Shown: piece after piece, positions 2,996-42,564 of the stretch | Numbering within the stretch: position 1 is the stretch's first letter | Layout: each line of letters begins with the position of its first letter | Virus record (IMG/VR): IMGVR_UViG_2718218135_000001 | Coordinates: 32,001-96,000 of that record | Length of the DNA: 64,000 nt | DNA from: a virus | Lineage: Duplodnaviria; Heunggongvirae; Uroviricota; Caudoviricetes | Reading direction: 5' to 3' (one strand) | Notes under the pieces: generated by a model | Told to the model about the DNA's origin: nothing | The model's input: the letters and a program-made list of their open reading frames with translations, nothing else | Databases searched by the model: none | Translations under genes and position numbers: made by a program

Positions 2996-3007
2996 TCCTC
3001 TTTGAAT

Positions 3008-3032
3008 GGCGCGTAAACCGCGCCATTTTCTT
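3008..3032 (+). terminator. rho-independent terminator
   Basis: ggcgcg-taaac-cgcgcc hairpin followed by ATTTTCTT. Confidence 0.6.
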
Positions 3033-3041
3033 ATGCCCGAT

Positions 3042-3054
3042 AACAATTTGTTTT
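3042..3054. promoter_or_regulatory. AAACAA-N2-TTGTTT operator-like palindrome (half-degenerate)
   Basis: aacaatttgtttt upstream of gene 3113. Confidence 0.4.
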
Positions 3055-3112
3055 CTGCCTTATCTGATTTGTGAAAATGATTTCACTGAAGCAACTTAAT
3101 AAGGAAACCATC

Positions 3113-3487
3113 ATGGGACTTGATATCTATATCGAGACGCAGCCTAAAAACGATCTGAATAACGAGGCATCCAGAAAGCAGGTTGCTTACTTCCGTAAGT
3201 TCAATGCGCTCGTTGGGTGGATGGAGCGCAACGTAGGTGAAGTCGAAAATTGTGAGCTTTTAGAATTAACGATGAATGACATTTGTTTTCTGAAGGCTCA
3301 TTTGATGCACATAAACGAAAGTAATTGCGAAGAGTACTTGCCTACCCAGGAAGGTTTTTTCTTCGGCAGTCAGGAGTACGATGAAGGTTACTGGCATGAC
3401 GTGGATAAGCTGAAAAAACTTGTGGAAGACCTGATCAGGAACCACGACTTTCACAATAACAGACTGACGTTCCGTGCCTGGTGGTAA
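3113..3487 (+). CDS. hypothetical protein (124 aa)
   Basis: in-frame ATG with AAGGA RBS; the track ORF begins at GTG 3071. Confidence 0.5.
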   Translation: MGLDIYIETQPKNDLNNEASRKQVAYFRKFNALVGWMERNVGEVENCELLELTMNDICFLKAHLMHINESNCEEYLPTQEGFFFGSQEYDEGYWHDVDKLKKLVEDLIRNHDFHNNRLTFRAWW

Positions 3488-3489
3488 AT

Positions 3490-3633
3490 ATGGGCGATTT
3501 CAAGAAACGCCTGAAGGAAAGAGCCGAGATGGTCAGAAATCAAAACGCATCTTCTGTCATCAGATACGCAAGGCAGTTTAGTCGCAACAACAAATCAGTT
3601 GAGGAAAAGATCCTTAGCGCAATCGGGCGATAA
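3490..3633 (+). CDS. possible small basic protein (47 aa)
   Basis: ATG overlaps the upstream stop (TAAATATG); below the ORF-track length cutoff; hand-translated. Confidence 0.25.
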   Translation: MGDFKKRLKERAEMVRNQNASSVIRYARQFSRNNKSVEEKILSAIGR

Positions 3634-3638
3634 TTATT

Positions 3639-3662
3639 AAGGCCACCAGCAGTGGTGGCCTT
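3639..3662. terminator. 10-bp stem hairpin (terminator-like)
   Basis: aaggccacca-gcag-tggtggcctt perfect stem; no T tract. Confidence 0.35.
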
Positions 3663-3803
3663 AAATGACCATCCTGTTTCCCGCAGGCTAAAAACACCAA
3701 CCTCTTACCTCCAGGCAACCGACAAACCCACCTGTTCCCGTCCGGCTACCGCAACTTTCCACTTTGACGCCTTATTCGTACAACGATAATTAACACCAAC
3801 AAG

Positions 3804-3816
3804 AAAACAATTTGTT
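3804..3816. promoter_or_regulatory. AAACAA-N2-TTGTTT operator-like palindrome
   Basis: aaaacaatttgtt, 22 bp upstream of ATG 3838; flanking acaccaacaag element is shared with the 1260 copy. Confidence 0.5.
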
Positions 3817-3837
3817 ATTTACGATAAGGAATTAATC

Positions 3838-4320
3838 ATGAATTTTATCGCTACTGTAAACGCACCCGCACATGGCAATATCGCTGTAACGTTCTCTGAC
3901 ATTGAAAAACGAGTACTTGGTGCATGGCGCGACAATGAGACGGTAGAACTGTCAGCACAAGAAAAATGCATTATTGCACGCGACATCATTGGCAATCGTC
4001 GTTACTCGCGGGTATTTGAGAAAGCATATGTGGTAAATTCTGGATTCGGAACGTTCGTCTTTCCGGTGCGCTCCGGGCGATTCTGCCAGTCCAAGCTGAT
4101 TGAGTTCGCTACGCAGATTTCTGTCTGGATTAAAACTCAATCGTCGTTCAAATTTTCCGACGATGAAGCAGTATCGCAGGGGATGCGGATCGCCAACAAT
4201 GCAATAAAATGCAAAAACATTACGTATGCCGCTGGCGTTGACACATGGAAACTGTTTTGCGCTAACTTTATGCTGAATGTATACGCAAGCAACCGCATCC
4301 ACATCCTTGATGGCGTGTAA
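3838..4320 (+). CDS. hypothetical protein (160 aa)
   Basis: ORF with AAGGA RBS. Confidence 0.55.
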   Translation: MNFIATVNAPAHGNIAVTFSDIEKRVLGAWRDNETVELSAQEKCIIARDIIGNRRYSRVFEKAYVVNSGFGTFVFPVRSGRFCQSKLIEFATQISVWIKTQSSFKFSDDEAVSQGMRIANNAIKCKNITYAAGVDTWKLFCANFMLNVYASNRIHILDGV

Positions 4321-4328
4321 CTGAGAAG

Positions 4329-4352
4329 AGGGCCAGAAACGGCCCTTTCTCT
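4329..4352 (+). terminator. terminator-like hairpin
   Basis: agggcc-agaaac-ggccct followed by TTCTCT. Confidence 0.5.
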
Positions 4353-4368
4353 ATAGCCACCAGCTGCC

Positions 4369-4450
4369 GCAGGGAAATTTTCAGAAACGGCGAGGAACGC
4401 ATTCATGAGCCGAAGGGAAACGACCATGAAATTTTCTGGAAACGGCGGGG
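4369..4450. repeat. second cluster of iteron-like repeats
   Basis: agggaaattttcagaaacggcg and agggaaacgaccatgaaattttctggaaacggcg; same unit as at 800-1000. Confidence 0.45.
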
Positions 4451-4913
4451 GTCGCCTTTATGTAGAAAACTGAGCGGGAGAAACCCGGAATCGCGCCAGA
4501 AATTGCATAGCGGCGCTGGGTAGTTGCTGGTGGGCTTTCAGCCCCTGGGCCATCCAGATAGCTTTCGCTATGTGATTATGTGAATCCGTGGGTAAATCAC
4601 TGTAAGCGCGTACACGTTGCCCAACGTGGCAATCATATGCGAGCGGATACAAAACAACACAAAGAGCCGATCCGCGCCGACAAATAAACGCGGATCACAT
4701 AGCAAGACTAAAAGCCAATGATTAACCATACTCTATAGCGCAATATAACGCGTTTTAAGCGCGTTAATGTGTTAAGTAATGGGTATGTACTGACAAGGAT
4801 ATAAAAGCGCGTCTATGGCGTTATTTTGGTGCTTATTTTTATGTTGTTGGAGTGAGTTAAAGACAATAAAAAACGCGCCATCATTGGCGCGTTATGGTGG
4901 GAGTATTGGAAAC

Positions 4914-4950
4914 GAAAAAAGCGCCCATAGTGGGCGCTCGATTTTATTTG
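4914..4950. terminator. bidirectional intrinsic terminator
   Basis: A-run, palindrome gcgcccatagtgggcgc, then T-rich tract; identical palindrome recurs at 5194-5212. Confidence 0.55.
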
Positions 4951-5174
4951 TGTAAACTGATTTCAAATCCTATTTCTACAAACGCTTTCAACATTAAAAA
5001 GATATCAGCGTCATTCACGTCTGCTTTTTTTCGCTCCTGGTCGTTCAATAAGTCAATTTTGCGCGTTGTTTCATTTATAAACTCGACTGCGCGCCCAGCG
5101 ATCCCAGCGATCCCAGCGATGCGATTAACATAATATTCATTATGGACGTTAACGCCAGCGATAAGAACAAACAT
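4944..5174 (-). CDS. small protein (76 aa) with IAG x3 repeat
   Basis: AAGGAG RBS; contains the 9-bp tandem repeat. Confidence 0.5.
   Translation of the reverse strand: MFVLIAGVNVHNEYYVNRIAGIAGIAGRAVEFINETTRKIDLLNDQERKKADVNDADIFLMLKAFVEIGFEISLHK
5094..5120. repeat. 9-bp tandem repeat x3 (cccagcgat)
   Basis: direct reading; encodes IAGIAGIAG on the minus strand. Confidence 0.8.
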
Positions 5175-5192
5175 GATTAAGCTCCTTAAAAC

Positions 5193-5213
5193 TAGCGCCC
5201 ATAGTGGGCGCTA
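5193..5213. terminator. palindrome identical to the 4921 copy (terminator-like)
   Basis: tagcgcccatagtgggcgcta, between two minus-strand genes. Confidence 0.4.
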
Positions 5214-5224
5214 TATCCATCTAA

Positions 5225-5875
5225 TTACGCTTTGAAAGCATCAGCCAGATAGTTATAAAAATCATTTTTAACGAAGCGATATTGCTGTGATCCGTTTTTC
5301 GCTGCACCCATTCCTTTGATTTTTTCGACCAGTCCCAGACGTTCGCAAAGATTGATAAGCTGGTTGGCTTGAGTGTATCCAGCGTCTAATTTTATTTCGT
5401 TGGCTTTTTTCGCTTCATTCATTAAATCGAAAACAGCGCCATTAGTGAACGTCTCGATCTCGTCGTTAATCATATCGATTAGAGCGAATACGCGAGATCC
5501 GGACATATCAGCGACGGAATAAACGCATTTACCAGACTTAATGGATTTAACCAGATAAACCAATTTTTCCAGTGAATAACTATTAGTCATTGCTTCGCGG
5601 AAAAATGCTTCAGGTGCTTGTTTGCTTGCTTTAATCGCGTAGTAAAACACGCCAGCTAATTTTTCATCATTAACAGCGTTTAAAACGTTGTTCGTGAAAT
5701 AAGCTAATTTAGTAGACGCTGCAAGCATGTTAGCTTTATCCGCTTTTGTGTGTGTACCATTTTTATAATGATTGTTATAAGTCTGGGTAGCGTTGTTGGC
5801 TGCAACTTGTAACTCATTAGCGATAACCACAGCAGCGTCGATGATAGCTTTTTTAGAAATGGTAACGTTAGACAT
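5225..5875 (-). CDS. hypothetical protein (216 aa), AT-rich island
   Basis: ORF with AAGGA RBS; no recognisable motif. Confidence 0.55.
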   Translation of the reverse strand: MSNVTISKKAIIDAAVVIANELQVAANNATQTYNNHYKNGTHTKADKANMLAASTKLAYFTNNVLNAVNDEKLAGVFYYAIKASKQAPEAFFREAMTNSYSLEKLVYLVKSIKSGKCVYSVADMSGSRVFALIDMINDEIETFTNGAVFDLMNEAKKANEIKLDAGYTQANQLINLCERLGLVEKIKGMGAAKNGSQQYRFVKNDFYNYLADAFKA

Positions 5876-6189
5876 GATGTTAATCCTTAATAAGAGTAAA
5901 AATAAAATTCTTGTATCGTTAGCGTGTTCGCTTTCGATGTGAGTAATTATCGATATGCAGAAATTAAAATCAAGAGTTTTTTACGCGGGAGCGAAAAAAT
6001 TTTTATTCAATAAAAATCAAAGTCTTAGAAATAAAACGCGTTTTCTCGAAGGTGTTGCCTAAATAAATTCCCTATTCGGTCAATCACCCTTATATATTTA
6101 AAGTGAAATCGGGATTAGGGAAAATAAATATAACGGGAAGTGACACATAAAATAATAACCGGACTTAGCCGGTTATCACCCTTATAGAT

Positions 6190-6714
6190 TTAAAACGGTA
6201 AAATCCGTTCGACCCAATCGAAGAGAACTATCGTTCGTCCGCGCTCGCCAACTCTCATTGCGACCTGACAGGCATCAACGCCTAACGAACACCCCTCAAT
6301 TTCACGGCCATCCGCCATGTAGACCCTTATAGACTTTTGCGCCTCATGAGCTTGACGACAAATTTTGAAGAAATCGCGGCGAGATGGCCGATTGTCCACA
6401 TAGTCAGGGTGTACAGTGAGCCTACCTGTAAACATCTTGTCCACTTCGACAGGTGTAATTGTTTCTATGGTGCTAACTCGCTCCAATGGAAGACGAACAC
6501 GATGTTCTTTACTTCCTATAACGGGAGAAAGATCTAGCTTATTGCGTGCGGTAAGCAGACCAATAACGTAAAGACAAAACGTCTGACCATCATCGATCGT
6601 GACCCTTACAGGTATATTCCTTGCCCGTAGGAACTGCAAACTAAACTCCACGTTAGAGTAGTCGCGGGGCCAGACCTCTGCTGGGATGCCGTATGTAATG
6701 TCTGTGATCGTCAT
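6190..6714 (-). CDS. hypothetical protein (174 aa), translationally coupled to upstream gene
   Basis: start overlaps upstream stop (TAATG). Confidence 0.55.
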   Translation of the reverse strand: MTITDITYGIPAEVWPRDYSNVEFSLQFLRARNIPVRVTIDDGQTFCLYVIGLLTARNKLDLSPVIGSKEHRVRLPLERVSTIETITPVEVDKMFTGRLTVHPDYVDNRPSRRDFFKICRQAHEAQKSIRVYMADGREIEGCSLGVDACQVAMRVGERGRTIVLFDWVERILPF

Positions 6715-7304
6715 TAGTCTACCTTAAGTGGCGTGTCGAGAAGCCCAAACTTAAACTGCTTGCTACCTGCCACGAGGAAGGGGGCTTCGATGTAAATGGT
6801 TTTGTTGTCGATATCTGATTTTGCGGTCTTTTTGATGTCTTTTAGAAGCCTAATTGTTGCTGCGTTGTCCAGAACAAGTACTTTGCCGGTCGCATCATTG
6901 CCGATTTTGCCGTATGTCGTGAACGATTCATTACTGCCAACGCGGATATTAATCGGGCAACCGCTCTTGGCGATCTCATCACAGTACATAGTTCCATCAA
7001 TCACATTTAGTAGACCGTAGGTTGGAACAAGAGCCTTGCCAGAGTTGGTGCTTGTTCCTTCTTTGACAGCTGTACCCATGATTTGAAGGCGCATATGTTC
7101 TGATTCACCGGAAATCAGTGTTTCTTCCGCGTTATCGGAATACCTGAACCATACAGGTTGAACTGTTCCTCTGGCCTCGTATTTTACATTGTCTAGGGTA
7201 GTGAACTTGCTGTACGTTTTTTGCATGTCAGCAACCATATCTGACACTGCATTGGCAGAGAATGATAGAATATAGGTGGTTACTAAGATGGCTAAACGAG
7301 TCAT
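6714..7304 (-). CDS. hypothetical secreted protein (196 aa)
   Basis: N-terminal signal peptide MTRLAILVTTYILSFSANA; GAGGT RBS. Confidence 0.55.
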   Translation of the reverse strand: MTRLAILVTTYILSFSANAVSDMVADMQKTYSKFTTLDNVKYEARGTVQPVWFRYSDNAEETLISGESEHMRLQIMGTAVKEGTSTNSGKALVPTYGLLNVIDGTMYCDEIAKSGCPINIRVGSNESFTTYGKIGNDATGKVLVLDNAATIRLLKDIKKTAKSDIDNKTIYIEAPFLVAGSKQFKFGLLDTPLKVD

Positions 7305-7602
7305 TCTGACCTCAAATTAACGATATGCTATTTCCAACAGAAGATGCTGCTTATAAACGCCTCAAGATGAAATCTGAATAATTTGTCTTTGAAAAAATTT
7401 CTCGCCATGAGTGATTTTACGCTCTAGCGAATTAAGAATTTCGTTAATGAAAATATTCATCCACCACCTCTGGCTCAAATTCCTCGGTTGTGAAGCCTAC
7501 AAATATTCGTCAACCGATCAAGAACTTTTTTTTCAGCCGGAGGTGTGCGAAATTGTGATATAAATCACATGCTGACATCTACAGACGCCAGCATATTGAT
7601 GA

Positions 7603-8142
7603 TTATTTGTCCAGCACTTTGTACTTGTTCGTAATCAAACGCTCACCCTTTCTGGTAACTGTAAAACCAAACGGCGCTTTGCTGTTTTTACGTAACACGC
7701 TTTCAGCGAGCGCTTCATCGGTAGGTTGTATAGTTGAATTGTCTATCCAGTCGATGAGGGTAAGAAAGTTTAAAAGTTTCATGCTCGTGACGCCCATCTT
7801 ACAGGCTATGTCACGGACGGTACGAATCTGCCTGCATTTTGTTTCATGTGCTGCGATAGGTGTCTTTGAATTGTTTGGTGTCAGTAACGTATCCAGTGTA
7901 TTAAAGAACCCCCTTGCGGATTCAGACTTAATAAGACCTGAGTCGCTCATATCACACGCGATACGGTACAGAATATTGCTGTTGTTCATGAAGGGATAGT
8001 TCTCAACGAATCTGACGAATGCTTGTGCATTTTTCTCTCCGCATTTGTAATCCAGCGGATTATCTACGCGCCAGAAAAATGCACTGTTGTTTTTTGCGTC
8101 AAAGATATCAACAAATGGTAGTTCAGCTAAATAGTTCATCAT
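7603..8142 (-). CDS. hypothetical protein (179 aa)
   Basis: ORF; start codon lies inside a 12-bp inverted repeat (8137-8175). Confidence 0.5.
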   Translation of the reverse strand: MMNYLAELPFVDIFDAKNNSAFFWRVDNPLDYKCGEKNAQAFVRFVENYPFMNNSNILYRIACDMSDSGLIKSESARGFFNTLDTLLTPNNSKTPIAAHETKCRQIRTVRDIACKMGVTSMKLLNFLTLIDWIDNSTIQPTDEALAESVLRKNSKAPFGFTVTRKGERLITNKYKVLDK

Positions 8143-8204
8143 GTGCTCCTTTGTAACTTGACGAGCACATGATGAACTACGAAATAAGGGGAAAAAGTGG
8201 AAGA

Positions 8205-8483
8205 TTACGGCAGCCGTTTGAGAATATCGGCCAGATCTTCTTTGGTCATACCCGAGTTTTCGTAAATCTTCATGACCTTTTCACGAGCCTTTGCAGTAGT
8301 CTCTAATGACGTAGCTATCTTATCAAAATCACCCATCGTCATATTGGACAGCACCAGATTGATGATGTCTGCCTTTGACAGTTTTATGCTGCGTTCACGC
8401 AGTCGATTCTGAAAGGTCTCTAGTTTATCGTTTGCTTTTTCGGTTAACTTAACCTGGCAGTTAATAGCGCGTTTCTCGCTCAT
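8205..8483 (-). CDS. hypothetical protein (92 aa) coupled to helicase
   Basis: starts 3 nt after the helicase stop. Confidence 0.5.
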   Translation of the reverse strand: MSEKRAINCQVKLTEKANDKLETFQNRLRERSIKLSKADIINLVLSNMTMGDFDKIATSLETTAKAREKVMKIYENSGMTKEDLADILKRLP

Positions 8484-8485
8484 GC

Positions 8486-10045
8486 TTACTCTCTATCCAA
8501 AACAGTGAAATCGAATGTGCTGCCAACCGGCAAGACCCCCTCGGCAAACCCAGGCGTCGTGTCGATAATGTGTTTCCGCTCATATGAATGCGACATGAGG
8601 TATTTGTTGCTCACGTCGATGAAGTCGGTAATAAAGCACACGTTAGCCTGATTTTTCTTGGCTCGTAAGCCACGACCGACACGCTGTCTCATTTCAACTT
8701 CTGCTTTCCCGCCACCACCCAGAATCACCGCGCCTACGCTTGGAACGTCGACACCAACATCCAGAATGGTTGAACCAATGAGAACATCTATCTTGCCTGC
8801 CGCCAGACTATTAAGTTTTGCTTGTCGGGTAGTCTGGTTTGATTCTCCGTAGATGAAATCGACCTTGAGGCCACTCTCTTTCATCATTTCCATCAAGATC
8901 TGACCATGACGCTTCAGACGAACCAATGTCATACAGTTCAGACCGTGACTCTTGTACATTAGCGCTTCACGCACAATAGCTTCGTTGCGGCCCAGATTAT
9001 AGACGATGCCTAACTGATAGGCTTTCTGGTAAGCCGTGCTCATTCCAACCCTAAAATTCAGGTGTTTTGAAGCAAGTTCGGCTCTAATCCGCGTCTCATC
9101 TGGAGTGTACGCGATTTTATGATATAAAAAGTATGGTTTCGCTAAAATACCTCTGTCGATCAAATATTTCTCCGTTACTTTTATCTCGATGCGACCCGCA
9201 ACGGCCATGAGACGCATATTTGCTTCAGTCGAGTCCTTCATGAACGGCGTAGCTGTCAGCGCCAGACGGTAGTCGGCATTGGTACACAACCGGGCTATAT
9301 CGTAGAAGTTTGAGCCGGATGATTCGTGCGCTTCTTCCAGAATCAGCAGAGAAACGCTGGACAGGAAGCGCTTAACCAATTCCCGGCGTTTCAGGTGATA
9401 CTGTTTTTTCTCTGGAGATGCGTCGCGCGACGGCTCTTCGAGAAAACTAGCAAGGGTCTGAACCGTGGCAACGTTGATATGGCGCGATACCTGAAACTCA
9501 CCAGATCCAATCACCCCAACTTTCTGACCTTTCAGCCACGGCTCGCCATTCTTCGCGCGGTAGTCGATGGATTTCTGGAAGTTCTCTGCCATCTGGAACA
9601 TCAGAACCGAGCGCGTGGTTAAAAACAGCGTCATACGACCAATGCGAGCTGCTGCCTTACACGCTACGTTCGATTTACCGCCACCCGTCGCAATCTGGGC
9701 AATCATCATCCCTTCGCGCACCAGTGTTTCCACTGTCTGATCCTGATACGCGTAGTCCGGGTTATACGGGAATGGATTAACCACCGGATTCGGCTTACCC
9801 AGCGCGGGAGCTTTTTCCTTGCGAACATGCACGCATTTGATGCCAGCTTTCAGAAGATTGGTCGCAACTGGCTTCGCAAACCCAGCCGGGAACGCGTTTT
9901 TACTCCAGTTGAACATCGTGCTGGTCCCTTTCCAGTCACCAGCCTCCACTTCATAGCTCAACATCTCCTGAACAAGCCGTTTCACGTTGTCATCAGCGCC
10001 AGAAATCAGCGCATTGACTGCATTTGATACAATCCGAACAGTCAT
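8486..10045 (-). CDS. superfamily-2 DEAD/DEAH-box helicase
   Basis: Walker A IATGGGKS, DEAH-type box LILEEAHE, SF2 motif order; AAGGAAAGAGG RBS. Confidence 0.8.
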   Translation of the reverse strand: MTVRIVSNAVNALISGADDNVKRLVQEMLSYEVEAGDWKGTSTMFNWSKNAFPAGFAKPVATNLLKAGIKCVHVRKEKAPALGKPNPVVNPFPYNPDYAYQDQTVETLVREGMMIAQIATGGGKSNVACKAAARIGRMTLFLTTRSVLMFQMAENFQKSIDYRAKNGEPWLKGQKVGVIGSGEFQVSRHINVATVQTLASFLEEPSRDASPEKKQYHLKRRELVKRFLSSVSLLILEEAHESSGSNFYDIARLCTNADYRLALTATPFMKDSTEANMRLMAVAGRIEIKVTEKYLIDRGILAKPYFLYHKIAYTPDETRIRAELASKHLNFRVGMSTAYQKAYQLGIVYNLGRNEAIVREALMYKSHGLNCMTLVRLKRHGQILMEMMKESGLKVDFIYGESNQTTRQAKLNSLAAGKIDVLIGSTILDVGVDVPSVGAVILGGGGKAEVEMRQRVGRGLRAKKNQANVCFITDFIDVSNKYLMSHSYERKHIIDTTPGFAEGVLPVGSTFDFTVLDRE

Positions 10046-10090
10046 AAACCTCTTTCCTTCGTGCCTTTTGTATGGTAATTGGCTATTATG

Positions 10091-10106
10091 TTAAGTAAGT
10101 ACTTAC
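10091..10106. promoter_or_regulatory. TAAGTA-N-TACTTA palindromic box
   Basis: ttaagtaagtacttac in the divergent region between helicase and ParB-like operon. Confidence 0.5.
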
Positions 10107-10109
10107 ACA

Positions 10110-10808
10110 ATGGATTGTATCAAAAATATGGATGTGAAAATTACGATTCTACAGGTGGAAGTCGCGAACCTGCGTCCGAACCCCTGGAATACCAACTCCG
10201 TTGGGGCGCAAAACTTCGAAAAACTGAAAGGTTCCATCGAAAAGTTGGGCTTTTTTAAGCCAATTCTGGCGCGAGAGCTGGACGGCGGCATTTTTGAGAT
10301 TCTCGGTGGCGAACATCGCTGGCGTGCCGCGATGGAGCAGGGCATTTCAACGGTTCCCGTAATGTCGGTGGGAAAAATTAACGACCTGGTGGCCAAACAG
10401 ATGTCTCTCGTCGATAACGAGCGCTACGGCGAAGACGATCAGATCGCTTTGCAACGCTTAATCGAAGAAATTCAGTCTGAAATTGACTACCGGTTGTCTG
10501 ATATCGCCCCGTATGACGACGAAATGGCGGCAACGCTCGCCAAAGCATCCGTTATCGATCTTGAAGCGCTGGAAGCGCTCTCCCGCGGCGATGACGAGCC
10601 GGTCGGTGAGGACAAACGCGAGAAAATCGAGCGAGTCGGTGCTGAACACCAGACGATGCGCTTCAAGGTGACGTTCGATGCGTCAGATCGCGTCGCCGAT
10701 ACCATCAAAACCATCATCAAAGAGCAGGGAATCAATACCGGTAACGAAATGGAGAACGCCGGGGAAGCCTTGGTGTGGCTGGTCGACTACTACAAGGAGC
10801 GTATGTAA
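10110..10808 (+). CDS. ParB-like nuclease-domain protein 1
   Basis: ParB/Srx N-domain signature LRPNPWN ... GGEHRWRAA; start choice uncertain. Confidence 0.7.
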   Translation: MDCIKNMDVKITILQVEVANLRPNPWNTNSVGAQNFEKLKGSIEKLGFFKPILARELDGGIFEILGGEHRWRAAMEQGISTVPVMSVGKINDLVAKQMSLVDNERYGEDDQIALQRLIEEIQSEIDYRLSDIAPYDDEMAATLAKASVIDLEALEALSRGDDEPVGEDKREKIERVGAEHQTMRFKVTFDASDRVADTIKTIIKEQGINTGNEMENAGEALVWLVDYYKERM

Positions 10809-30835: not shown

Positions 30836-33800
30836 ATGGAACAGTTCAAGAAGAAAAAGTTACCGCTGTTTATTGCCGGTGCGGGTGGTAAAAAAAGTAG
30901 CAAAAGCTCCAGCCGTACACCGGTTGAAGCCGACGATACCGTAAATTCTCGTGCAATGGCCGCTATCCTCGATCTTCTTGGGGAAGGGGTAATTGGCGGC
31001 TTAGTAAATGGCGCAAGATCTATTTTTATCGACGATCTGCCGATTGTAAATGAAGACGGTTCCTCCAACTTCAGCGGAATCACATGGGATTTTCGCGACG
31101 GTTCACAAGACCAGACTCCAATGTCTGGCTTTGATTTCGTTGAAACGCCTAAATCCGTCAATATCCAGTTAAAAAAAACGCATTATGTAACGGTTTCAAT
31201 CGATAACGATGAAGCTGATCGGGTTCGTGTCATCATGAAGTTTCCTTCTTTGCGAAGCATAGATAAAAAAACTGGTGACACGAACGGTACGACTGTTGAG
31301 TACAAGTTCCAGATAGCAAATGGCGACTCAACATTTGTAGATGTGGTCGCGGAAGGTGAAAAAAGCGTTGGCATTAAGCTAACAGCAAAGAAGACCGGCG
31401 TTTATTACCGTAGCTATGAGCTGAAGCTGCCTAAGCCTGGACGAGCATACAAGGTTCGTGTAGTCCGTATTACCGATGATAACAGTAGCCAGTATCTCTA
31501 TAACGATACATGGGTGGATTCAATCGGGGAAATTGTCGATACACCGATGAACTATCCAAACTCTGTTTTGGTTGGATTGAAGGTAAACTCTGAGCAATTC
31601 GGCAGCACCATGCCATCTCGCTCTTATCTGGTGCGTGGCCTAAAAATTCGAGTACCTTCAAACTATAACGAGTCCAGTAACACTTACGCTGGGGTATGGG
31701 ATGGCACTTTTAAGCTGTTGTCTTCTTCGAACCCCGCGTGGATTCTCTTTGATTTGCTGACCAATGCTCGATATGGCCTTGGTCAGTATGTGTCGGAATC
31801 TATGATTGACCTTGGCCAGTTGTACCAGATTGGTCGATATTGTGACGAAGAGGTCGATGATGGCTTTGGTGGCAAAGAGAAACGCTTTGCAATCAATACG
31901 CAGATCACCAGTCGACAGGACGCATACCGGCTAATTCAGGATATTGCTGGAGCATTCCGCGGCATGGTGTTTTGGGCTGGTGGGATGGTTAACATCATGC
32001 AGGATAGCCCATCAGATCCGGTAATGATGTTTACCAACTCTAACGTCAAAGATGGATTGTTTACCTATAAAGGTTCTGCGCGTAAAGATCGCCCATCCGT
32101 TGCGCTCGTAACCTACAACAACAAGGAGGACGGTTATAAGCAAAACATCGAGTACGTTGAAGATCAGGACGCAATGCGCCGTTATGGTGAGCGTAAGACA
32201 GAAGTCGTAGCATTTGGCTGTACAAGCCGAGGGCAGGCTCACCGAGTTGGTTTGTGGCTTTTGTATACCGCCAGAATGGAGTCGGATGTAATTACATTTA
32301 CTGCCGGCTTAGACGCGTCATTTTTGATGCCTGGTGAAACCGTTCTGATTCAGAACAAATATCGCGCAGGCAAACGTAACTCAGGTCGAATTGTGGCGTT
32401 TACCAAAAACAGCGTCACACTCGATGCGCCTGTGTCGTTAGCCAAAGGCGGCTGCTTTATTCGAATACTGAATCAGGAAGGCAAAATCGTTGAACGCGAT
32501 GCTCTTGAAACTGGCGAAAATATAACAAAAGTTACGTTTTCAAAAGCCCTGTCGTCAGCGGAAACGCCTGTTTTGAACGGTGTCTGGACAATTACAGAAC
32601 CAGATCTCGAACCTATGCGCGTTCGCATCGTTAACATCGCTCAGGGGGAAACGTCGGGTAGCTTTGACATCACCGCTGTTGAAAACAATCCGTCTAAATA
32701 TGAGGCGATCGACAATGGTGCAACGCTTATCCCGCAGAATACGACGGTATTGGACCCGACTTACTCCAAGCCGTCTAATTTGCAAATCACTGAAGGGACT
32801 TATCTCTCAAGCCCGGGCAACCTGTCAGTAAAACTGACTGCAACATGGGAAGGGAAATCTCCAGAGTATTGGATCAGTTGGCGACGTTCTGATGCAAACA
32901 ATGTATCGAACTGGCAATCGACGCGTGTAACCGAAGAGCAATACGAAATCGTTAATGTCGCGGAGAATGGACGCTACGACTTCCAACTGTATGCGGTTTC
33001 ATTCAACGGTAAAAAAACAGAAATTATCAGCACCGTCTACAAAGTTCAGGGGACGATGACGCCGCCGGATGCACCGACTGCACTGACGGCCGTGGGCGAC
33101 TACCGCAACGTGATTCTGAATTGGGTTAACCCGGACTCAATCGACCTCGATCACATCAACGTGTATGCATCCCGGACCAACAACCTGGACACTGCAAAAC
33201 TAATTGCCGAAGCAGCCAGTACCACCTTTACGCACGCAGGTCTTGGAGATAGCGAAACTTGGTTCTATTGGGTTCGTGCAGCAAACAAACGCGGAATGTT
33301 GAGCCAGCCGAACTCCAATTTGGGCACTGAGGCGATGACGAAAGATGTTCTGTCTTTCCTGACCGGGAAGATCACTTCTTCGGAATTGGGGCAGGAACTG
33401 CTTGAGGAAATCGACACCAAAGCCTCGCAGGAAGCCGTCGACGCAATCAACAAGCAGATGGAAGAAAGCCTGAAAAGCCTTGATGACAAATTTACTGAGA
33501 CCGATCAACGGATTGAAGAAGCCCAAAACGTTCTTAGAACGGAAGTTTCTAATACTGCCAGCAAGGTGGAAGAGGCTCTTAAGGAGGTTGAAAACTCAAA
33601 TGCCGCATTAATTCAGTTGAAGGAAACTGTTTCAGAGCAGGACAAGGTCGTTGCTGGAGCGGTTGAGGCCGCGAATGCAGCACTGGACAATTCATCGGCT
33701 TTAGTTGCGGAGGAACGTGAGGCACGAGTCGAAGGCGACTTGGCGAACGCGAAAGAAATCGAGGCAATGAAGTCAACTGTAGATAGCAGTTTGGCCACCA

Positions 33801-41863: not shown

Positions 41864-41898
41864 CATACGACAATAATTCACGCAAAGGAAACTCACCA

Positions 41899-42564
41899 AT
41901 GACCAAGATCATTGTGGTTGGCGGCACAAAAGGCGGCCCAGGCAAATCTACCGTTGCCCAGCAAATTGCGGTATGTCTCAAAGTTAAAAAGAAAAAGAAG
42001 GTTCACGTCACCGATATCGATATCCAGCGCACCACGACCAGCTGGTGTGAAGACCGTCGCCAGAACGAAGATCTTGAACTGATCCCGTTCGCTTATGTGC
42101 AGGACGACATCGTCAAACATCTTAAATCGCTTCAGGGGCGAACTGATTATGTAGTGGTAGATGCTGGTGGCTTTGACTCCGAAATTCAGCGTCTGGCGAT
42201 GCTTATGGCTGATGTAATCATCATCCCGCTGCGCCCTAAACGTCGTGATTTGAAATCTCTGCGTGATATCGACCCGATTATCGACAACGTTCGCAATGTG
42301 AACGAGAAAGTTAAGATCCGCGCGGTAATAAACCAGTGTCCGTCATTGCCTTCCCAGGTATCACGTATTCTGGCCGCGAAGGAAATTGTCGAAACTTTCG
42401 GCATCGAGGCTGCGCCGGTCAATCTGTACAACCGTAACGTTTATGACGATGCGGAAGAGGCAGGTCGTTCTATCTTTGAAATGACTGGCGCTGAACGCGA
42501 TAAGAAGGCAGAAGCCGAGTTCGAAGAGTTTGTAGATTACATCTTGAGTCTGGAGGAAGAATAA
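41899..42564 (+). CDS. parA: ParA-family partition ATPase (small, type Ib-like)
   Basis: deviant Walker A GGTKGGPGKST; 221 aa. Confidence 0.85.
   Translation: MTKIIVVGGTKGGPGKSTVAQQIAVCLKVKKKKKVHVTDIDIQRTTTSWCEDRRQNEDLELIPFAYVQDDIVKHLKSLQGRTDYVVVDAGGFDSEIQRLAMLMADVIIIPLRPKRRDLKSLRDIDPIIDNVRNVNEKVKIRAVINQCPSLPSQVSRILAAKEIVETFGIEAAPVNLYNRNVYDDAEEAGRSIFEMTGAERDKKAEAEFEEFVDYILSLEEE

Follow-up and report, generated by a model that had tools for sequence, protein, structure and literature searches.

A predicted exported-protein gene overlaps an FljA-family gene in a variable cargo slot of SSU5-type phage-plasmids

Two overlapping genes were analysed in a window of 64,000 nucleotides, that is, the whole stretch at positions 32,001 to 96,000 of the IMG/VR virus record IMGVR_UViG_2718218135_000001. 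The upstream gene encodes a protein of 196 amino acids (aa) with a predicted export signal, here called S196, and the downstream gene a 174-aa protein related to the flagellin repressor FljA, here called FljA-like (Table 1). On the minus strand, which carries both, the order is helicase gene, 92-aa gene, 179-aa gene, hairpin, 32-codon gene remnant, S196, FljA-like, terminator-like hairpin, AT-rich spacer and 216-aa gene. The junction of S196 and FljA-like reads GTAGACTAATGACG on this strand, with the stop codon TAA at 6716-6714 and the start codon ATG at 6714-6712, one nucleotide being shared.

Both open reading frames (ORFs) are genuine genes under purifying selection and not chance ORFs, because the ratios of non-synonymous to synonymous substitution rates (dN/dS) are low (0.13–0.25 for S196 and 0.08–0.25 for FljA-like) and the overlap is kept in diverged homologues. 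It is TAATG or ATGA in all S196-bearing loci examined and persists even between S196 homologues of just 53–55% identity. From the layout of the junction, the overlap is predicted to couple the translation of the two genes; since it is kept wherever S196 is present, S196 and FljA-like are probably co-expressed. The initial annotation of the window had described two minus-strand ORFs joined by TAATG, translationally coupled and lying in an accessory, AT-rich island. The ORFs and their coupling are borne out by these data, and the accessory, variable nature of the stretch by the slot census given below. The AT-richness proved mild: the GC content is 0.462 for the pair and 0.413 for positions 4700-8500, compared to 0.482 for the window, and of the two genes (S196, 0.445; FljA-like, 0.480) the second is at the window mean.

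Table 1. Positions of the genes and sequence signals at the S196/FljA-like locus in the window.
Feature	Position	Strand	Basis or remark
Conserved 216-aa gene (phrog_1513), downstream boundary of FljA-like gene	5225..5875	-	
Terminator-like hairpin GAUAACCGG-CUAAGU-CCGGUUAUUAUUUUAU, just past FljA-like stop	6144..6186	-	-15.7 kcal/mol
FljA-like gene (174 aa; PF03614, phrog_1444)	6190..6714	-	ATG start; ORF list, profile matches
TAATG stop/start overlap of S196 and FljA-like genes	6712..6716	-	Read from sequence
AAGG, Shine-Dalgarno-like, inside S196 3' end, 7 nucleotides before FljA-like ATG	6722..6725	-	Sequence reading
S196 gene (196-aa predicted exported protein; phrog_18942)	6714..7304	-	ATG start; ORF list, homologue alignment
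S196 codons 1-19, predicted type-I (Sec) signal peptide MTRLAILVTTYILSFSANA	7248..7304	-	Predicted cut before VSD; no lipobox
GAGG, Shine-Dalgarno-like element, 5 nucleotides before S196 ATG	7310..7313	-	Sequence reading
32-codon remnant (MNIFINEILNSLERKITHGEKFF...), 5' part of 162-aa gene	7362..7460	-	Comparison with loci L053 and L078
179-aa cytoplasmic protein gene (phrog_13473, no assigned function)	7603..8142	-	
Conserved 92-aa gene (phrog_1466), upstream boundary of variable slot	8205..8483	-	
Helicase gene	8486..10045	-	

FljA-like belongs to the FljA family. It matched the Pfam profile PF03614 (Flag1_repress, "Repressor of phase-1 flagellin") with 231.6 bits (E = 6.4e-69; the curated cut-off is 24 bits), residues 5-171 aligning with profile positions 1-170 of 170, i.e. 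over the full length, and phrog_1444 with an E-value of 1.9e-87. In BLASTP, the identity to Salmonella FljA (P0128) was 34% over 173 residues, again full length (E = 2e-33). The homologues form two clean clades: (i) a phage-plasmid clade, on contigs of about 100–115 kb, with a median pairwise identity of 65%; and (ii) a canonical clade, annotated as "phase 1 flagellin transcriptional repressor", with a median of 59%. Identities between the clades are 25–42% (median 34%), and FljA-like falls outside the flagellin-linked clade and is a member of the phage-plasmid clade. Across both clades 28 columns are at least 95% conserved, including the motifs ITYG..AEVWPRDY, RRDFFxIC and FDWVxRI. The chromosomes of Atlantibacter and Franconibacter show the canonical order flagellin, hairpin, fljA.

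The closest known system comprises FljA of Salmonella enterica (fljBA operon), FljA(z66) of the linear plasmid pBSSB1 and the chromosomal relatives in E. coli, Citrobacter and Atlantibacter. These proteins have PF03614 over the full length, a similar size (176–179 aa against 174 aa) and the invariant motifs in common with FljA-like, and like fljA the FljA-like gene is the distal operon gene behind a (predicted) exported first product. Unlike in fljBA, the upstream gene is S196 and not a flagellin gene, and FljA-like is near-core in phage-plasmids, including those of classically non-motile hosts. Its orthologue in Salmonella phage SSU5 is SSU5_121 ('putative repressor of phase 1 flagellin'), with equivalents in pHCM2 and pMT1. 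SSU5_121 and SSU5_122 are likewise flanked by the helicase/92-aa genes on one side and the phrog_1513 gene on the other, and there too an exported protein is encoded directly upstream. This SSU5_122 ('putative lipoprotein', 140 aa, LITAC lipobox) is unrelated to S196, and its gene is 4 nucleotides from the FljA-like gene, whereas S196 overlaps it in the window. In SSU5 (locus L001, 5016-5540) the FljA-like frame extends upstream of the annotated 148-aa coding sequence, where TNITDITYG... corresponds to the conserved N-terminus; the true start thus probably lies further upstream than annotated, or else the native start codon was lost.

The AlphaFold2 model of FljA-like (mean predicted local distance difference test score, pLDDT, 82.7) contains two units of one helix plus five strands each in a single chain. 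All of the top 50 Foldseek matches of the model in the PDB were Hfq, and in the model an N-terminal helix and a bent five-stranded β-sheet superpose on Hfq, as predicted for an Hfq/Sm-like fold. Hfq/Sm proteins have one domain and form a homohexamer, whereas the model has two units per chain, and at the sequence level FljA-like is not significantly similar to Hfq; in the canonical clade, one protein scored 26.1 bits with the Pfam Hfq profile, just below the cut-off of 27 bits. FljA proteins act post-transcriptionally by blocking translation of fliC mRNA, and a plasmid with fljA(z66), its flagellin gene inactivated, turned motile E. coli non-motile (PMC2652032). An Hfq-like fold fits a family that acts post-transcriptionally on fliC mRNA. 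We found no paper that links FljA to phage-plasmids, to pHCM2 or to the Sm/Hfq fold. Given the homology to FljA and the Hfq/Sm-like model, FljA-like is likely an RNA-binding post-transcriptional regulator, which would bind an mRNA leader and repress its translation.

S196 carries a predicted signal peptide. Its N-terminus consists of a basic n-region (MTR), a 12-residue hydrophobic core (LAILVTTYILSF) and an A-x-A site (SANA, with the cut before VSD), and this pattern is retained in all aligned homologues. The signal peptide has no Cys and no lipobox ([LVI][ASTVI][GAS]C) was found in S196; the maximum 19-residue hydropathy of the mature protein is 0.72, with no further transmembrane segment. 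Overall, S196 is predicted to be a Sec-exported, soluble periplasmic protein. The N-terminus of FljA-like is not hydrophobic, and the initial annotation was thus right in assigning a signal peptide to the upstream product and none to the downstream one. It had also recognised no motif in either product, which has to be corrected for FljA-like (PF03614) and stands for S196, for which there is no Pfam family. The profile and structure searches proposed with it placed FljA-like in a regulator family and gave neither a family nor a usable fold for S196. S196 matched phrog_18942, a family without function, and had no match in Pfam, NCBIfam, PADLOC or the PDB sequences. S196 has a very small family of its own (15 clusters in 5.8 billion proteins), with two invariant Cys residues (C108 and C116) and about 65 other invariant positions in the alignment. 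An exhaustive profile search found just seven relatives among 1.84 billion representatives, and there is therefore no remote family to lean on. The AlphaFold2 model of S196, made from eight sequences, was unreliable (pLDDT 44); its Foldseek matches (generic β-sandwiches, best E-value 0.06) were not significant and were discarded as meaningless.

The window derives from an SSU5/pHCM2-type phage-plasmid, as follows from three observations: (i) a 120-kb non-mobilizable E. coli plasmid matches the pair region with 99.8% identity; (ii) this region is syntenic with Salmonella phage SSU5; and (iii) the window aligns from 20 to 44 kb with an SSU5-like tail module at about 86% identity. All E. coli matches to the pair region were on plasmids. 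In PLSDB, the FljA-like gene was found by tblastn in 830 records (821 at a coverage of at least 80%), overwhelmingly non-mobilizable, phage-plasmid-type records of about 100–120 kb. By genus these are Klebsiella 341, Escherichia 228, Enterobacter 92, Yersinia 62, Salmonella 60, Citrobacter 27, Cronobacter 10 and Shigella 6. The counts nearly mirror those of the adjoining helicase (Klebsiella 346, Escherichia 227, Enterobacter 92, Yersinia 62, Salmonella 49, Citrobacter 25), and FljA-like is therefore close to a core gene of the SSU5-type phage-plasmid lineage. S196 was present in 64 PLSDB plasmids (Escherichia 53, Klebsiella 5, Shigella 4), about 8% of the FljA-like carriers. It adjoins the FljA-like gene in every locus examined, and the longer contigs with S196 are all phage-plasmid sized.

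The region between the helicase/92-aa block and the 216-aa gene is a variable cargo site, as was seen in a census of 90 phage-plasmid loci (80 from IMG/VR, 5 genomes, 4 found via an S196 homologue, and the window). In 35 loci, including Y. pestis pMT1, the slot (the interval from the 92-aa gene to FljA-like) holds a 140-aa lipoprotein gene (Lp140) on the same strand, 4 nucleotides before FljA-like as in SSU5, and in 10 a related 145-aa lipoprotein gene (Lp145) on the opposite strand. S196 occurs with the 179-aa gene (8 loci), with the 179-aa gene and a 162-aa gene (7 loci), alone (5 loci) or in a frameshifted form (1 locus). The 179-aa gene is also found with a gene of about 200 aa and a 118-aa secreted protein (S118; 8 loci, plus one in which the 200-aa gene is truncated). 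An opposite-strand 260-aa lipoprotein (Lp260) is present in 5 loci, and in 3 more together with the 179-aa gene; one locus has the 179-aa gene and an opposite-strand lipoprotein left untagged by the classifier, and in 6 loci the slot is empty. When the cassettes were compared by hhalign, Lp140 and Lp145 were related (98.6%), Lp260 and S118 possibly so (69%), and S196 showed no relation to the other slot cassettes. Pfam searches with the alternative cassettes gave sub-threshold matches only, such as DUF2846 and BiPBP_C. Beside the constant FljA-like gene, the alternative cassettes thus represent at least three exported-protein families without relation to one another. In many elements the 179-aa gene is found alongside S196 or the 118-aa cassette, with which it may form one cargo unit. 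L053, L078 and other loci have a complete 162-aa gene between the 179-aa gene and S196, and the 32-codon remnant of this gene points to a deletion within the slot of the window.

The two genes also evolve and are lost separately. Between loci L053 and L002, FljA-like is 97% identical and S196 47%, which indicates recombination at the junction. In a K. pneumoniae SB612 plasmid (L096, NZ_CP084833.1, 2501-2706) the 5' two-thirds of S196 are deleted; the remaining 3' part of about 200 nucleotides is fused just past the hairpin of the 179-aa gene, with the TAATG junction and FljA-like intact. Similar matches to this remnant were found in Enterobacter and Klebsiella plasmids (H33-H36). Conversely, in an E. 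coli plasmid (L094, NZ_AP027577.1, 3952-5181) FljA-like is cut after about 60 codons by ISKpn26, an IS5-family insertion sequence, and S196 is intact. The same disruption is present in CP088502.1 and NZ_AP027538.1, the three being cointegrate plasmids of 158–231 kb, and FljA-like is hence not essential for plasmid maintenance in every setting. Because some cassettes are on the opposite strand, operon coupling is not required. S196 and FljA-like do not form an interdependent module, and the incongruent identities, single-gene losses and opposite-strand cassettes argue against an addictive or co-evolving pair.

On balance, we favour the reading that S196 is an envelope moron cassette in a cargo slot, translationally coupled to a phage-plasmid-clade regulator of the FljA type with an Hfq-like model. 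The cassette would have been inserted before the regulator gene and would borrow its translation via the TAATG overlap, with a role independent of the regulator. The phage envelope morons T5 Llp, φ80/N15 Cor and lambda Bor are comparable, in that S196 is likewise small, predicted to be exported and situated in a variable slot of a temperate element; it differs from them in having no sequence or fold similarity and in being a predicted soluble periplasmic protein and not a lipoprotein. It can be put forward only tentatively that S196 acts at the cell envelope, for instance in superinfection exclusion or in modifying the surface.

As to the target of FljA-like, the default prediction in a flagellated E. 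coli host is fliC mRNA, and the lysogen would be less flagellated. Among the hosts, K. pneumoniae, Y. pestis and Shigella count as classically non-motile. That hundreds of elements from such hosts keep FljA-like intact, under purifying selection, suggests a target other than, or besides, fliC mRNA. The conserved primary target would more likely be an RNA that all hosts contain, the most plausible candidate being a transcript made from the element. We regard fliC as a reasonable candidate for the physiological target in E. coli, though short of an even chance, and consider it evenly balanced whether the conserved target is element-borne or otherwise unrelated to flagellin; these estimates, and that for RNA binding, are not mutually exclusive.

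Several observations weigh against the favoured reading. There is no flagellin gene in the 64-kb window (best tblastn E-value 0.63), and a search for a mimic of the fliC leader gave only chance matches (best E-value 1.6) at the level of primary sequence in this 64-kb part of an element of about 110 kb. The identity to characterised FljA is just 34% and the phage-plasmid clade is clearly separate. A comparison of the two halves of FljA-like by hhalign gave a probability of 2.9% for internal duplication; because the profiles of the halves give no support, the tandem two-unit architecture is a property of the model. For S196, the poor structural model leaves location and export signal as the only grounds, and the proposed function is a guess. 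Finally, the several unrelated cargo genes beside FljA-like all encode envelope proteins, which could mean a functional link between cargo and regulator.

In the initial annotation, the two genes were proposed as a possible superinfection-exclusion, abortive-infection or toxin/immunity pair. A toxin/antitoxin, toxin/immunity or abortive-infection system would be in keeping with two small genes that overlap and lie in accessory DNA of low GC content on a mobile element. However, no PADLOC match was obtained at E ≤ 0.1 for S196, FljA-like or three neighbouring genes, and FljA-like is a near-core member of a regulator family. The upstream gene can be replaced by unrelated genes, in some variants on the opposite strand, or be absent; the genes do not co-vary (830 plasmids with FljA-like against 64 with S196); and natural variants exist in which either gene is disrupted alone, which an addictive pair should not tolerate. 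This explanation is largely refuted already and we consider it highly improbable. Superinfection exclusion lacks support where the pair is taken as a unit and can be considered, tentatively, for S196 alone. Another possibility is joint anti-flagellar lysogenic conversion, with FljA-like stopping flagellin translation and periplasmic S196 acting on the basal body, the rod or another envelope receptor, such that the two remove a phage receptor or immune target. All characterised members of the FljA family repress fliC translation, the coupling is kept between S196 homologues as diverged as 53–55% identity, and S196 is found mostly in elements of Escherichia and Shigella (57 of the 64 records). 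Yet about 92% of the plasmids with FljA-like are without S196, the two genes evolve incongruently and have each been lost independently, and S196 is not similar to any flagellar protein or Pfam family. Also, SSU5 reportedly uses the lipopolysaccharide core and not flagella as its receptor. Joint conversion thus appears improbable.

A different possibility is that FljA-like has no part in flagellin control and is a dedicated regulator or RNA chaperone of phage-plasmid transcripts, comparable to the FinO- and Hfq-like proteins of plasmids, that controls replication or copy number, partition, lysis-lysogeny or the cargo slot, with S196 as unrelated cargo. Its near-core status, with 341 Klebsiella, 62 Yersinia and 6 Shigella records from mostly non-motile hosts, would be accounted for, as would its position in the helicase/ParB region, the predicted Hfq-like fold and the conserved structured elements nearby (the hairpin at the start of the 179-aa gene and the TATAAGGGTGAT doublet past the FljA-like stop). 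Against it, the window search found no element-borne target, the ISKpn26-disrupted copies persist in cointegrates, so the gene is not essential there, and the only known activity of the family is on fliC mRNA. We hold this for a serious alternative, albeit one with less than an even chance. In its widest form, the phage-plasmid FljA-like proteins would be a hitherto unrecognised class of Hfq-fold regulators controlling element transcripts (copy number, lysis-lysogeny or expression of the envelope-cargo slot), with Salmonella FljA as a specialised offshoot and the adjoining envelope cassettes, including S196, as possible clients; this we regard as speculative and rather unlikely.

Phage-plasmids of the SSU5/pHCM2/pMT1 type are common in clinical Enterobacteriaceae and carry resistance genes; to our knowledge, most of their non-structural genes are uncharacterised. 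We found no paper that discusses an FljA-family gene on phage-plasmid-type records, many of which come from classically non-motile genera. The key question is whether FljA-like silences host flagellin, element RNAs or both. Repression of host flagellin would bring about a silent change in motility, H-antigen expression, visibility to TLR5 and sensitivity to flagellotropic phages, whereas regulation of element RNAs would make FljA-like an Hfq-fold regulator of a new kind, carried by a mobile element. A slot in which unrelated exported proteins are swapped is a place to look for new superinfection-exclusion or envelope-modifying functions.

The non-coding sequence around the pair was also inspected. 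Immediately past the 179-aa stop codon lies a terminator-like hairpin (7567-7596, minus strand), so that transcription of the pair may start from a promoter of its own within 7305-7566. No sigma-70 consensus promoter was detected between 7305 and 7602 and no sigma-28 promoter upstream of the pair, the sequence ahead of S196 is not conserved from variant to variant, and an Rfam scan of 3000-10500 gave nothing above the gathering score. The terminator-like hairpin past FljA-like has a z-score of just -1.6 and was not flagged by a consensus scan. A 20-nucleotide direct repeat, TTTAAAT[C/A]TATAAGGGTGAT on the minus strand, is present at 6175-6194 and 6083-6102, 92 nucleotides apart; the first copy starts 4 nucleotides past the FljA-like stop and is part of the terminator-like stem. 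The corresponding doublet of TATAAGGG[T/C][G/A]AT, with a spacing of 88–96 nucleotides, was found in 59 of 93 related loci; where a further gene has been inserted, the doublet has moved along with the sequence that precedes the 216-aa gene.

Further upstream, at 8132-8179, the window contains a perfect 17-bp inverted repeat (TAGTTCATCATGTGCTC-N14-GAGCACATGATGAACTA). The minus-strand RNA folds into an 18-bp hairpin (-29 kcal/mol, z-score -7.5, none of 200 shuffled sequences as stable), in which the ATG start codons and part of the Shine-Dalgarno element of the 179-aa gene are sequestered. The hairpin core (ATGTGCTC...GAGCACAT) is conserved in many related loci, where it lies just past the 92-aa gene; L072 and L078 carry a compensatory swap of C-G to G-C. 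The core is also present in loci without the 179-aa gene, and the structure may serve in translational control or as an operator palindrome. Elsewhere in the window there are two tRNA genes, tRNA-Lys(ttt) at 41887-41967 (minus strand) and tRNA-Asn(gtt) at 59235-59309 (plus strand). A GC-rich palindromic unit (AAAAAAGCGCCCATAGTGGGCGCT) lies at 4915-4938, with a 92% identical copy at 5189-5212 and a 67% identical copy at 4868-4891; a sub-threshold Rfam match to the small RNA Hrs1 (32 bits, gathering score 56.4) covers 4865-4931. The palindromes at 4868-5212 are probably terminator hairpins flanking a small 76-aa ORF.

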